NCBI GenBank assembly: GCA_016839745.1
Contig: JAEOTS010000168.1
Span: forward strand, 1-20,620
DNA length: 20,620 nt
Source: Promethearchaeota archaeon
GTDB taxonomy: Archaea; Asgardarchaeota; Lokiarchaeia; Sigyniarchaeales; SOKP01
Direction: 5' to 3'
Of this stretch, positions 13,650 through 18,750 are shown piece by piece. Both the position numbers and the translations under genes were made by a program. Numbering within the stretch: position 1 is the stretch's first letter; each line of letters starts with the position of its first letter. The notes below the pieces were generated by a model that was given only the letters and a program-made list of their open reading frames with translations, did not search any database and was not told where the DNA came from.

Positions 13650-14372
13650 TCATTCTAACTCCTTGCCGAAACTCTTGTAGATTAAATATGCGGCAATGGT
13701 GGAAGTTACTGGCATTATCAGAGAAGCAATTGTCCGGTATATCTGGTTGTCAACCAAAGTATGATATAAGAATACTGAAAAAACTACGCCGAGTTCTAGA
13801 AATACGCTAGCTAAAAACATATTAATCCTACGTTTTAGGATAATGCCTTCAAATACTTTTAATAGCTTTAACGAATAATATATTTGGGGTATAAGCAAAA
13901 AGATTAACAAGAATACCCAGCTAAAAATGGAAAAAAACCAATTATAAGTGGGTATCCAGTTTGTACTCGAATCATATTTTATCCCATTGAAGTAAAATCC
14001 AATCAAAAACACATAAGTTGATATGACTCCATAAAATGTAATGATTAGATGAAATTTCCAATAAGCTGATTTCTTATCGAGCTTAACAAGCACCCAACTA
14101 AAAATAACAAAAAAACAATGGCAAAAAACATAGAAATATATTCCAATTATATATGAAATGTATGCGAAAGGAGTATTCAGAACAAAAATTGAAGTGGTAG
14201 CAAAGATATATGTGATAGAATTCAAAATAAAGAGACTACTCAGAGTATAAGTTGACCTATTTTTAGCTCTCTTCAGTAATTTGTAAGCAAAATAAGAGCC
14301 ATAAAATATTGGCCATACTTGAACTATTAATAAAAAGATAATTCTTTGAGTGAGAATGCTTTGAAGTAGCAA
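13650..14372 (-). CDS. Stand-alone 7TM membrane protein, paralogue A (240 aa)
   Basis: Seven hydrophobic segments; colinear without gaps with the next two ORFs. TTG start at the position of the paralogues' ATG. Confidence 0.8.
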   Translation of the reverse strand: MLLQSILTQRIIFLLIVQVWPIFYGSYFAYKLLKRAKNRSTYTLSSLFILNSITYIFATTSIFVLNTPFAYISYIIGIYFYVFCHCFFVIFSWVLVKLDKKSAYWKFHLIITFYGVISTYVFLIGFYFNGIKYDSSTNWIPTYNWFFSIFSWVFLLIFLLIPQIYYSLKLLKVFEGIILKRRINMFLASVFLELGVVFSVFLYHTLVDNQIYRTIASLIMPVTSTIAAYLIYKSFGKELE

Positions 14373-14477
14373 TTTGGCTCATTTTTATTTTTTTAACCTA
14401 TTAGTTAAAAATTAACGCTTTTAATATTTAAATTCTAATTTTAAATAACACTAAGATTTAAAAATTCATCATTACCT

Positions 14478-14489
14478 AAAAGAGAACGA
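14478..14489 (-). terminator. Pyrimidine-rich 3' motif TCGTTCTCTTTT downstream of 7TM B
   Basis: Identical to 13626-13637. Confidence 0.4.
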
Positions 14490-14502
14490 GTAATCATCTT
14501 TT

Positions 14503-15225
14503 TCATTTTAACTCTTTTATAAAACTTTTATAGATTAGAAATGCGGATATAGGTGAGACTAAAATCACTAACGACATGTAGAATGCCCCGAATAATGGAT
14601 TATCAATCAAAACACGATATAAAAAGAATGTAAAAACCACTACGAGTTCTATAAATGTGCAAATTATAAACATTTTAATCCTACGTTTTAGGATGACTCC
14701 TTCAAATATTTTTAAAAGCTTAAATGAAAAATAAATTTGGGGTATAATTAAAAAGGCTACTAAAAAAGCCCAACTGAAAATGAGAAAAAACCAGCTAAAG
14801 CGAGGTACCCAATTTGTAGTCGAATTATATAATATCCCATTGAAGAAAAACCCTATCCAGAAAACATAAGTAGATATGATTCCATAAAGAATAATGGTTA
14901 AAGAAAACTTCCAATTAGGAGATTTCTCGTCAAGCTTTACAAGCACCCAACTAAAAATAATAAAAAAGCAATGATCAAAAAACAAAAAATACACTGCTAA
15001 TATATAAAAGAAGTATGCCATGGGAGTAAATAGAAACAAAATTGAAAGATTAGCAAGGACATCTGTGAGAGCAAATAAAATAAAGAAACTACTCAGGGTA
15101 TATATTGACCTATTTTTAGCTCGCTTAAGCAATTTGTAGGCGAAATAAGAGCAATAAAATATTGGCCAAATTTGAATAATTAATACAAAGATAATTCTTT
15201 GAGTAAAAATGGTTTGAAGTAGCAT
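14503..15225 (-). CDS. Stand-alone 7TM membrane protein, paralogue B (240 aa)
   Basis: Same length and motifs (WPIFY, YKLLKRAK, FSWVLVKLD, IPQIY, KRRI.MF, YKSF.KEL). Confidence 0.82.
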   Translation of the reverse strand: MLLQTIFTQRIIFVLIIQIWPIFYCSYFAYKLLKRAKNRSIYTLSSFFILFALTDVLANLSILFLFTPMAYFFYILAVYFLFFDHCFFIIFSWVLVKLDEKSPNWKFSLTIILYGIISTYVFWIGFFFNGILYNSTTNWVPRFSWFFLIFSWAFLVAFLIIPQIYFSFKLLKIFEGVILKRRIKMFIICTFIELVVVFTFFLYRVLIDNPLFGAFYMSLVILVSPISAFLIYKSFIKELK

Positions 15226-15253
15226 TGTGTCTATTTTGTTTATTTTAAGTATA

Positions 15254-15271
15254 TATACTTTAAAGTTAACT
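15254..15271 (-). promoter_or_regulatory. Conserved upstream element of 7TM paralogue B (TATA-like TTTAAA within palindrome ACTTTAAAGT)
   Basis: tatactttaaagttaact is identical to 16026-16043; TTTAAA lies 34-39 nt upstream of the ATG. Confidence 0.6.
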
Positions 15272-15277
15272 TGTTTT

Positions 15278-16000
15278 TTAATCTAACTCTTTACCGAAAC
15301 TCTTATAGAGTAAATAGGCGGCTATTGTTGAAGTTTCTGGCACTAACATAATGAAGATTAGCCTAAAAATCTCATTATCCACCCAGGTGTTATATAAGAA
15401 TAGTGAAAAAACCACGGAAAGTTCTAGGAATGCGCTAATTATAAACATGTTAATCCTGCGCCTTAGTTTAGCTCCTTCAAATATTTTGTAAAGTTTAAAA
15501 GAATAGTATATTTGTGGTATTAGTAAAAAGATTACTAAAAAAACCCAAGCAAAGATGAGAAATGACAAGCTATAAGTAGGTATCCAAGAGGTACTCGAAT
15601 CATACTTTATCCCTTCGAAGAAAAACCCAATCAATAAAACGAATGTTGAAATGATACCATAAAAGGTAATAATTAAATGAAATTTCCAATAAGGAGATTT
15701 CTCATCAAGTTTTACAAGCACCCAACTAAAAATAATGAAAAAACAATGGCTGAAAACGAAAAAATATATCCCAAATATATAAAAAAAGTATGCGAGGGGC
15801 GTATCAAAAAAGAAAATTGAGAAAGTAGCAAGGAAATATGTGAGAGAAATTAAAAGAAAGAAGCTACTCAGAGTTAAAGTCGATCTACTTTTAGCTCGTT
15901 TAAGTAATTTATAAGCGAAATATGAGCAGTAAAAAATAGGCCAAATTTGAACAAGCAAAATGATGATTATTCTTTGAGTAAGAACTTCTTGGAGTAGCAT
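15278..16000 (-). CDS. Stand-alone 7TM membrane protein, paralogue C (240 aa)
   Basis: Same length and motifs as A and B. Confidence 0.82.
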   Translation of the reverse strand: MLLQEVLTQRIIIILLVQIWPIFYCSYFAYKLLKRAKSRSTLTLSSFFLLISLTYFLATFSIFFFDTPLAYFFYIFGIYFFVFSHCFFIIFSWVLVKLDEKSPYWKFHLIITFYGIISTFVLLIGFFFEGIKYDSSTSWIPTYSLSFLIFAWVFLVIFLLIPQIYYSFKLYKIFEGAKLRRRINMFIISAFLELSVVFSLFLYNTWVDNEIFRLIFIMLVPETSTIAAYLLYKSFGKELD

Positions 16001-16025: not shown

Positions 16026-16043
16026 TATACTTTAAAGTTAACT
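16026..16043 (-). promoter_or_regulatory. Conserved upstream element of 7TM paralogue C
   Basis: Identical 18-mer; TTTAAA lies 31-36 nt upstream of the ATG. Confidence 0.6.
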
Positions 16044-16088: not shown

Positions 16089-16667
16089 TCACTTCGAAAA
16101 TACTTCATATTTTAATATTTCAGCTCGATAATATTTCCAAATTGTATCATAAATCTTTCTTTGAAAACGCTGACTACTCAAAGTTTTAACGGGTGTATTT
16201 GTTATTAAATCATTTATTGATAGAATAATGGTTTCTGTATATACCTTAAATTTTTCACGGATTTTCTCTTCCTCTTTAATACCATCCACATAACCTTTAA
16301 TAATGTCATTTAACGATTCGCTTACGCTACTTACGGTTGGAAGAATAAATTTTTCGTATTTTTTCCGGATTGTAGGCTTTACATAGATTCTTATTACTTG
16401 TTTTCCGTTTACAGTGGTTTTCTTCTTAAAAGCAAATCCTTTTTTACATAAATTATTAATGTAATCATACCCCTTAGTTTGACTTTTATGATCAAATTCT
16501 AAATCAATAATTTTTTTCAGAATTGATTGTTCTTCTCCTTCATGCATCAGAAGAATCATAAATGCTTCAAATTCGCGCATCGATAATTCTCTTAGATTAA
16601 AAGCATTATCTTTTGAACGAGGGATCTTTCCAATCTCAAGTTTTTGGGGAGAGATGTTATCTTCCAT
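16089..16667 (-). CDS. Putative winged helix-turn-helix DNA-binding protein with a C-terminal helical domain
   Basis: LSMREFEAFMILL…KGYDYINNLCKKGFAFKK…NGKQVIRIYV fits the helix / recognition helix-KG / wing pattern of TrmB/MarR-like wHTH domains. ATG at 16667. Confidence 0.6.
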   Translation of the reverse strand: MEDNISPQKLEIGKIPRSKDNAFNLRELSMREFEAFMILLMHEGEEQSILKKIIDLEFDHKSQTKGYDYINNLCKKGFAFKKKTTVNGKQVIRIYVKPTIRKKYEKFILPTVSSVSESLNDIIKGYVDGIKEEEKIREKFKVYTETIILSINDLITNTPVKTLSSQRFQRKIYDTIWKYYRAEILKYEVFSK

Positions 16668-16883
16668 AATCAAATACAATTTTCAGCTTATGCTTTATTA
16701 GTTGTTTTCTAATGTAAAATTAATTAATCACAATTTTTAGTCAAATTGTCAAATCTGTAAAGAATAAAATATAGTGATTATATAAAAATTTATGGTTCTA
16801 ATTTATAGATATTTCCTCGCAATTGTAAAAATTTTCTTTTAAATTAAAGAACTGAGCTCAAAAATTCACGTTTTTAACAACAT

Positions 16884-17700: not shown

Positions 17701-18750
17701 TTAGTTTTTTTCTAATCTTGAATTGATAACAGATTCTGCTATGTCGTAGAAAGCATATTCTACGTTTTTTCCGGTCATAGCGGAGGTTTCTATATATTTA
17801 AGATTTAATTCCTTAGCTAATGCTAAAGCTTCAACTAATTTAACTTTACGCACTTCTGTAAGATCAGTTTTATTGCCGAAGATATATCCAATCATCTTTA
17901 AATGATGCTTTTCCATATTTTTTATTACATCTTCGTACCAATTTTTAATACTGTTAAAGGAGATTCTGTTTGTCAAGTCAAAAATAAGTAAGATAGCCTC
18001 TGAACCTTGGTAAAAGTGTCTTCTCATCGTTTGGAACTTATTTTGGCCAGCGATGTCCCATAATATTGTTTCTATTGCTTTACCATTAGCATGTATGATT
18101 TTTTCAGTAATACTAACTCCTAATGTAGGAACATAGGTTCTTAGAAATGCGTTATCAGTAAACCGTAAAATTGTTGAAGTTTTTCCGACACCTGGATCTC
18201 CTACTACTACGAGTTTGAACCGATAATCAACGATCTTATCGTCCCTTACTATTATTTCGGGAAATTCTTTTGATGGTGGGAAAGAAACTTCTTTTGCGCG
18301 AAAATCGTCTAATAATTGACCTACACTAATTCTAAGTACATTGATCTCCTCAAAAATTCTTTCTCTCTCAACTTTCTGTTCTTCTAATTCTATGATTTTT
18401 CTTGTTGTTTCATCAAAAGGAGCCTTTAAATAGCTCATATATTTATAAAAGACAACATCGTCTGCTTCTTTAAATAAAAAAGTAATCGCTGATCGCGCAA
18501 ATCCTCCTCTTTTGCTCTCGTCTTCTCTTTCTATATACCTTATTAATCCTTTTAGTTTTAACGAAGGGAAGGGAATTATTAATAAAGAACCCGGCACAGA
18601 TCCTTGATCTCCTGTGAGAATAGTTACAGATTTAATAGCAACAAGCATTCTTATCGATTCTGGCAAATCTGAAGGTAACCAATGAATAGGATCTGGTCCT
18701 AATTCATCGTGAATATCGGTGTAAATTACAGCATCAATTAGTTTCTTCAT
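17701..18750 (-). CDS. Rab-like small GTPase with an N-terminal longin/uDENN-like domain
   Basis: G1 GDPGVGKTS, G2 YVPTLG, G3 WDIAGQ, G4 NKTD, G5 ETSA. About 175-aa N-terminal extension with an HDELGP motif and an RGG.R-beta strand. Confidence 0.85.
   Translation of the reverse strand: MKKLIDAVIYTDIHDELGPDPIHWLPSDLPESIRMLVAIKSVTILTGDQGSVPGSLLIIPFPSLKLKGLIRYIEREDESKRGGFARSAITFLFKEADDVVFYKYMSYLKAPFDETTRKIIELEEQKVERERIFEEINVLRISVGQLLDDFRAKEVSFPPSKEFPEIIVRDDKIVDYRFKLVVVGDPGVGKTSTILRFTDNAFLRTYVPTLGVSITEKIIHANGKAIETILWDIAGQNKFQTMRRHFYQGSEAILLIFDLTNRISFNSIKNWYEDVIKNMEKHHLKMIGYIFGNKTDLTEVRKVKLVEALALAKELNLKYIETSAMTGKNVEYAFYDIAESVINSRLEKN

Follow-up and report, generated by a model that had tools for sequence, protein, structure and literature searches.

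A tandem array of seven-transmembrane proteins with a GPCR-like predicted fold, possible sensors, in a Lokiarchaeial genome

Introduction

What would an archaeon do with three related seven-transmembrane (7TM) proteins encoded side by side? The question is raised by a stretch of DNA from a Promethearchaeota archaeon (Lokiarchaeia; Sigyniarchaeales), here called the window, which is the whole of contig JAEOTS010000168.1 of assembly GCA_016839745.1 (20,620 nucleotides, nt), and which carries three adjacent 7TM genes that we call A, B and C. An earlier note, made from the sequence of this DNA, had proposed that the three proteins hold different ligand pockets coupled to one shared downstream partner, as in chemoreceptor expansions. 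We examine here the fold of these proteins, the residues that set the paralogues apart, the constraint acting on their two faces, the history of the array and the proteins that could be their partners. In the metagenome-assembled genome (MAG) designated G000, which has 3.5 Mb and about 31% G+C, the window corresponds to contig C151. Its DNA is present in marine-sediment metagenomes, with no RNA run listed among them; related genomes are designated G0xx.

Results

Predicted fold and family of A, B and C

A, B and C can be aligned without gaps, with identities of 73% for A and C, 66% for B and C and 64% for A and B. An AlphaFold2 model of C, calculated with 119 homologues (pLDDT, or predicted local distance difference test, 89.7; predicted TM-score, pTM, 0.87), displays seven helices (residues 6–33, 39–63, 68–96, 104–127, 145–173, 177–205 and 210–235), in agreement with the seven hydrophobic segments of the sequence. 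Lys and Arg residues are distributed unevenly, 16 of them being located on the inside loops and tail versus 3 on the outside, which indicates a topology with the N-terminus outside and the C-terminus inside. In the model, the loop between transmembrane helices (TM) 4 and 5, that is, extracellular loop 2 (ECL2), forms a small hairpin that includes G130, T137, W139 and P141.

When the model of C was compared to 48,161 representative chains of the PDB with VIA-align, all of the top 50 matches displayed a G-protein-coupled receptor (GPCR) fold, with Z values from 17.6 (CD97 and MAS1) to 15.0 at rank 50; 211 to 238 of the 240 residues could be aligned, with a root mean square deviation of 3.6–4.6 Å and 6–13% identity. 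These matches span adhesion, class A, class C and class F receptors, LYCHOS/GPR155 and a designed GPCR-like fold. The top 50 matches returned by Foldseek were also all GPCRs, with TM-scores of 0.46–0.64 and weak E values near 1e-2. As judged from the model, the fold of the family is GPCR-like.

Sequence searches gave no such indication. Neither A, B nor C had a match in Pfam at E up to 1, a family in NCBIfam or a match to PDB sequences at E up to 10. Among the matches of 118 family members there were no GPCR families of Pfam, and Solute_trans_a or similar Pfam families were also without a match at E up to 1. The class A microswitches DRY, CWxP and NPxxY are absent from the three sequences: TM3 terminates in FSWVLVKLD, Pro is missing from TM6, and the sequence of TM7 is PETSTIAAY. 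C has just two Cys residues, Cys25 and Cys86, so that there is no disulphide between TM3 and ECL2. A microbial rhodopsin was considered and rejected, since none of the three proteins has a Lys in TM7 (212–232), K233 being located at the cytoplasmic end.

We collected 131 close homologues, whose sources are all Loki, Hermod or Promethearchaeota MAGs. When 1.84 billion protein representatives were searched with a profile, 332 relatives were obtained, the best 150 of which are nearly all 225–255 amino acids (aa) long and never exceed 329 aa; these short lengths indicate that the family is stand-alone, without output domains. A, B and C are thus members of an unannotated family of minimal, stand-alone 7TM proteins of ~240 aa, found only in Lokiarchaeia and related Asgard MAGs.

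The weak Pfam matches that recur among the 118 members concern 7TMR-DISM_7TM (seven members, best E 0.0026) and HisKA_7TM (two members, best E 0.005), all of them below curated cut-offs, and a lead from the protein atlas likewise points toward prokaryotic 7TM sensor modules. An hhalign comparison to 13 Asgard HisKA_7TM domains gave a probability of 52% over 160 collinear columns, a type of score that hydrophobic helices inflate. True HisKA_7TM domains, which belong to long fused proteins (375–1144 aa; L049–L068), were observed in 21 of the 201 Asgard genomes sampled, and in none of the 16 genomes of the window's genus that were searched.

Residues that distinguish the paralogues in the membrane core

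The alignment reproduces exactly the loop motifs quoted in the earlier note, as well as the positions at which it had seen residues switch between A, B and C (51, N/F/I; 55, Y/D/Y; 59, T/N/T; 84, C/D/S; 204, H/R/N; 222, V/L/E). The residues that it had listed as shared within the membrane, namely Q18, W20-P21, H85-C86, P162-Q163 and E193, are indeed invariant among the three copies.

Of the three proteins, B has the clearest signature. Six residues, D55, N59, F82, D84, A157 and F200, are present in all of its orthologues and missing from the other 20 proteins of clade I, the clade of the window's copies. All six are located at most six residues from the centres of TM2, TM3, TM5 and TM6, and together they represent a gain of two acids and one amide, one exchange of a large for a small residue and two changes to an aromatic one. 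All three B orthologues, which come from three species and include G015_2 and G012_C31, have D55, N59 and D84; the same triple is found in 10 of 134 clade-I metagenome sequences, and of the 11 of these with D55 only one lacks D84. This distribution suggests that the three residues are not a product of drift and that the membrane core of B has been remodelled. From membrane energetics, acids fixed near the middle of the membrane are unlikely to face lipid. The gain of two Asp and one Arg that the earlier note had attributed to B therefore holds for D55 and D84 and fails for R204, which is replaced by His in the B orthologues; position 204 is Asn family-wide.

Other copies also carry residues of their own. 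C84 is diagnostic of A-like copies (G000_A, G014_2 and G012_2), generating the run C84-H85-C86, and E222 of C is also present in the orthologue G015_1 and recurs in several lineages. The polar core as a whole is a feature of clade I alone, the older clades having hydrophobic residues there. A clade formed by G008 and G002 (L037:9006-12385, G008:C20; L038:9568-10287, G002:C18), which includes a four-copy array, shows a coupled change within the membrane, having gained N90 and R110 and lost E193, H85 being replaced by Tyr or Phe; N90 and R110 are each found in 49 of the 134 clade-I sequences.

Helical moments of variability and hydrophobicity singled out no helix at p<0.1, and their sole consistent hint was that residues 51 and 55 are located opposite the lipid-like face of TM2. 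A mean-field direct coupling analysis of 248 sequences (effective number, Meff, 171) was dropped, as gaps had produced its strongest couplings.

Constraint on the inner and outer sides

Columns that are invariant among A, B and C account for 35/50 positions of the cytoplasmic loops (70%), 49/77 of the inner TM halves (64%), 34/76 of the outer TM halves (45%) and 16/37 of the outside loops (43%). When the inner half of the protein is compared to the outer half, the values are 66% versus 44% (Fisher p=0.0007), and the comparison of the cytoplasmic loops to the rest yields p=0.026. In TM7, none of the 11 columns of the outer half (212–222) is invariant, versus 5 of 10 in the inner half, which bears out the strong divergence of this region reported in the earlier note; its description of the inside loops as 'almost invariant' was right about their higher conservation and overstated its degree (70% versus 56%).

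The proportion of synonymous differences (pS) in the cytoplasmic loops, 0.52–0.58, equals that of the other regions, and the proportion of nonsynonymous differences (pN) is 0.09–0.13. The high pS indicates that the invariance of these loops is due to purifying selection, and rules out gene conversion as its source. The ratio of nonsynonymous to synonymous substitution rates (dN/dS), calculated on the tree of 23 sequences, is likewise lower on the cytoplasmic side, with 0.26 for the cytoplasmic loops (0.10 for intracellular loop 1, ICL1), 0.30 for the inner TM halves, 0.46 for the outer TM halves and 0.39 for the outside loops. In pairwise comparisons the ratio of nonsynonymous to synonymous changes was higher in the outer half for B and C (p=0.006), for the two copies G023_1 and G023_2 (p=0.03) and for G009 and G017 (p=0.02), and other pairs showed no such difference. 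For the G009 and G017 orthologues (L041:6917-7633 vs L042:1882-2598), this corresponds to 38 nonsynonymous and 8 synonymous changes in the outer half and 17.5 and 13.5, respectively, in the inner half; the outer-TM dN/dS of this close pair is 1.37, a value based on small counts.

The consensus common to clades that are less than 40% identical covers 12 of 50 cytoplasmic loop positions versus 5 of 37 in the outside loops, and 20% of the inner side versus 11.5% of the outer side (p=0.08). Residues K31, L33, K34, R35, R39, P162, K169, F174, L179, K180, Y232 and G236 on the inside, and Q18 in TM1, are found family-wide, and much of the set of cytoplasmic motifs whose conservation had been pointed out earlier is common to distant clades. 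The contrast in constraint between the inner and outer sides is real but modest, and part of it is ordinary lipid-facing turnover.

Turnover of the array

In 12 genomes of the same genus, a single syntenic site carries between one and four 7TM copies, in the order Ogg, longin-Ras, nitroreductase, orf196, 7TM copies, S15 peptidase, orf119 and a pyridoxal phosphate (PLP) enzyme. In the tree, B groups with G015_2 and G012_C31, and C with G015_1, both with a support of 100. A is only loosely grouped with G014_2 and G012_2, which the tree places with the B group (95) and the C group (45), respectively. The orthogroups are older than the species, and independent duplications are seen in the G000/G015/G012/G014, G008 (four copies) and G023 (two copies) lineages. 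The locus is a birth-and-death tandem array. Clade I and orf196 always occur together and are confined to one genus, half of which lacks clade I, which indicates that the window holds a young accessory module. These dynamics resemble those of receptor arrays and fit a growing sensor family, without yet being proof of one.

Every junction of the array is bridged by contigs of runs X1 and X4, which come from two sediment samples (X4 represents another sample from the same study, and one of the bridging samples is not flagged as a possible source of the assembly); the three-copy array is thus not an assembly artefact. An 18-nt element located upstream of C (Table 1) is probably this gene's own promoter, given the TATA-like TTTAAA that it contains, and its identical counterpart upstream of B was duplicated along with the gene. 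Upstream of A, only the looser GTTAATTTTTAAC is found.

Genes next to the 7TM proteins

The gene orf196, which in every case immediately precedes the array on the same strand, has homologues that some sources call 'predicted transcriptional regulator'. A fourth clade-I-like paralogue of the genome, on contig C52 of G000, is preceded by an open reading frame that is unrelated to orf196 and followed by a 410-aa P-loop protein (L004:2388-3620, plus strand) with a weak match to archaeal ATPase_2 (E 1e-4). The longin-Ras protein, 1.7 kb away from the array in the window, is not supported as a specific partner: Ras-family matches number at least 67 in the genome, or roughly one every 53 kb, and no longin-Ras match is found upstream of the array of G021 (L044).

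Other clades of 7TM paralogues have gene contexts of their own. In an older sister clade, one or two 7TM genes are preceded by a gene that we call c1, whose product was modelled with a pLDDT of 90.6 and displays the topology of a small GTPase. The model resembles Rac, Rab and Ras proteins, Foldseek having matched it to Rac1 (E 2e-9) and VIA-align to Rab3C (Z 16.2 over 157 aa, 2.9 Å). Its G motifs are degenerate, and c1 would thus be a pseudo-GTPase with a Ras/Rab fold. Of 61 genomes of the taxonomic family, 50 have c1, at least one in each of the 13 genera, with one match in 48 of the 50; a search of five genomes of the sister taxonomic family did not find it. By a hand tally, at least 28 genomes, from at least 10 genera, have c1 upstream of a 7TM gene at a distance of no more than 4 kb and on the same contig and strand. 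A lone c1 alongside many 7TM copies agrees with a single shared partner, as far as the sister clade can serve as a guide. The notion that orf196 and c1 belong to one partner family was rejected (hhalign probability 0.1%).

Downstream of the c1 and 7TM genes, on the same strand (L069–L075, L006:2362-2718), a protein of 115–141 aa is encoded in which a helix-hairpin-helix and a Cys4 zinc ribbon can be recognized by eye. Another conserved neighbour of these genes encodes a membrane protein resembling Na+/Ca2+ exchangers.

Table 1. Coordinates of the 7TM genes, of the elements preceding them and of the neighbouring genes considered as partners (positions in the window unless a locus is named)
Feature	Position	Strand	Length	Remarks
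7TM paralogue A	13650-14372	minus	240 aa	TTG start
7TM paralogue B	14503-15225	minus	240 aa	most divergent copy; P221 lost
Identical 18-nt element AGTTAACTTTAAAGTATA	15254-15271	minus	18 nt	28 nt before ATG of B
7TM paralogue C	15278-16000	minus	240 aa	copy used for structure model
18-nt element AGTTAACTTTAAAGTATA	16026-16043	minus	18 nt	25 nt before ATG of C; contains TATA-like TTTAAA
orf196	16089-16679	minus		directly upstream of array, same strand; weak TrmB-like winged-helix signal, E 0.006
longin-Ras protein	17701-18750	minus	349 aa	Ras-family G domain at 179-341 (E 2e-47) after 175-aa N-terminal region
c1	L006:331-927 = G000:C161:5679-6263	plus	198 aa	upstream of distant 7TM paralogue
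Distant 7TM paralogue	L006:1474-2196 = G000:C161:6822-7535	plus		preceded by c1

Discussion

Taken together, our observations lead us to favour, tentatively, the possibility that A, B and C are GPCR-fold sensors with a paralogue-specific core and a partner shared at their inner face. A small ligand or cation would be bound inside the helical bundle, at a mid-membrane cluster of polar residues that differs between paralogues; in B, the two acids D55 and D84, together with N59, would be suited to a cation or an amine. A change brought about in this way would be relayed to the conserved and strongly basic cytoplasmic surface, composed of ICL1, ICL2, ICL3 and the YKSFGKEL tail, and this surface would engage a partner that the paralogues have in common. 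As to the type of partner, a protein with a small-GTPase fold would be the best candidate, favoured because the older sister clade adjoins a single-copy pseudo-GTPase of Ras fold across many genera, and orf196 would be the alternative.

Several results weigh against a sensor with a common partner. GPCR-fold proteins include transporters and cargo carriers, so that the fold does not give the function. If hydrophobic interchange is removed and only radical columns are counted, variation goes half of the way to the uniformity that the earlier note had regarded as an objection to its proposal, with 20% on the inner side versus 30% on the outer (p=0.07). When clades less than 40% identical are compared, mean variability is equal across all four regions. 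The outer face cannot be a ligand surface that is free to vary, since R10, G130, T137, W139, P141, N204 and R213 are family-wide. Among the 23 sequences, no region has a dN/dS above 1 and no site an excess of nonsynonymous changes, in an analysis where dS is near saturation and power is low; of the likeness to chemoreceptor expansions, the tandem array with gains and losses and the more constrained inner side are observed. Lastly, the link to c1 belongs to the older sister clade rather than to that of the window, and c1 is devoid of nucleotide-binding motifs.

The proteins could instead carry small solutes or ions, as transporters or in a channel-like way, on the basis of a GPCR-like 7TM fold, in the manner of OSTalpha/TMEM184 or of the GPR155/LYCHOS module. 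The mid-membrane polar residues (Q18, H85, E193, Q163 and E222, with D55/D84 in B) would then line a translocation path, and the substrate would differ from one paralogue to the next. In favour of this explanation, LYCHOS/GPR155 is among the top structural matches (Z 16.1), TM184C has a GPCR-like fold with archaeal homologues (PMC13581589), and the charged and polar residues are close to the helix centres; however, no transporter family was matched by sequence, and the protein is very small and has no internal repeat. The fact that the polar core is hydrophobic in the older clades further indicates that transport is not the mechanism of the family as a whole. Conserved motifs on both faces of the membrane also speak for transport, as does a neighbourhood rich in metabolic enzymes and with a peptidase, whereas the conserved link of the sister clade is to a GTPase-fold protein and not to metabolic genes. 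We regard transport as an unlikely function.

Another explanation does away with the ligand. A, B and C would be membrane anchors or scaffolds whose basic inner face would be retained for the sake of topology, docking or contact with lipids, and the differences between paralogues would reflect a constraint relaxed after duplication, B being merely the fastest of the three. Such a role would sit well with dN/dS values that are all below 1, with the lack of positively selected sites, and with an outer half in which much of the variation is hydrophobic interchange; copy number is also dispensable, as seen in the half of the genus that has no clade I. We nevertheless find it doubtful, because it must accommodate a B core in which two Asp and one Asn are fixed in three species and in 10 metagenomic sequences, and unpaired acids in a bilayer are costly, which makes their fixation hard to reconcile with drift. 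In addition, the invariant loop residues are not restricted to basic ones (SYFAY, FEG, SF.KEL), and a loop pS as high as elsewhere points to strong selection there.

A common metal site or catalytic switch of the family formed by H85, C86, Q163 and E193, as the earlier note had envisaged, is contradicted and very improbable: A, B and C do have these four residues in common, and A-type copies add C84 as a third ligand-like residue, but among the 23 syntenic clade-I proteins position 85 is H/Y/F/N/Q, 86 is C/S/G, 193 is E/Q/S/V/G and 163 is Q/E, the 108 distant members mostly carry P/L/F, I/V, L/I/Y and T/I at positions 85, 86, 193 and 163, respectively, and no metalloenzyme fold is found among the top 50 structural matches.

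Returning to the sensor with a shared inner-face partner, one may go further and imagine a pathway in which several 7TM paralogues with different cores converge, through their basic inner face, on the single-copy c1, as an archaeal counterpart or forerunner of the coupling between receptors and G proteins. We consider this extension quite unlikely. The family and the link of its older clade to a Ras-fold protein do raise a concrete question that can be tested, namely whether 7TM sensors talked to GTPase-fold proteins before eukaryotes. Should A, B and C turn out to be transporters or scaffolds, they would still represent a new, unannotated family of Lokiarchaeial membrane proteins.

Comparison with known systems

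GPCR-like folds are known in archaea and bacteria (PMC13581589, PMC10760455), and TMEM184/OSTalpha and other 'superdark' GPCR-like 7TM proteins have archaeal homologues (PMC13581589). A, B and C share with the TMEM184/OSTalpha type an archaeal GPCR-like fold that is found by structure and not by sequence. The Asgard–eukaryote families listed in a 2026 preprint (bioRxiv 10.64898/2026.10.28.762692) include 7TM proteins as well as four structural clusters that are GPCR-like.

The HisKA_7TM (PF16927) and 7TMR-DISM_7TM (PF07695) modules are likewise prokaryotic, have seven TM and are of similar length. They are, however, fused to kinases or cyclases, the Asgard examples measuring 375–1144 aa, whereas the family of A, B and C is stand-alone. 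With nematode and insect chemoreceptors, the array shares its tandem arrangement, lineage-specific gains and losses and a faster divergence of the parts remote from the cytoplasmic face; it differs from these animal arrays in having only one to four copies per locus, with at most 12 7TM-profile matches per genome, and in the absence of detected positive selection.

The differences from eukaryotic GPCRs, of which adhesion and orphan class A receptors (CD97, MAS1, GPR6, MRGPRD and ADGRL3) are the best structural matches, lie in the identity of 6–13%, the lack of Pfam matches, of class A motifs and of the TM3–ECL2 disulphide, and in a length of only 240 aa with almost no tails; in addition, heterotrimeric G proteins are not known from archaea. 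The seven helices, their arrangement (Z 15–17.6), the orientation with the N-terminus outside and the C-terminus inside, the hairpin in the TM4–TM5 loop, the short basic inner loops and the tandem multigene expansion are common to both. A last resemblance concerns the sodium pocket of class A GPCRs, which consists of an Asp in the middle of TM2 with a polar partner in TM3. The acid pair is confined here to one orthogroup instead of being present in the whole family, but in B its placement is reminiscent of that pocket, with D55 near the centre of TM2, N59 one turn above it and D84 near the centre of TM3.

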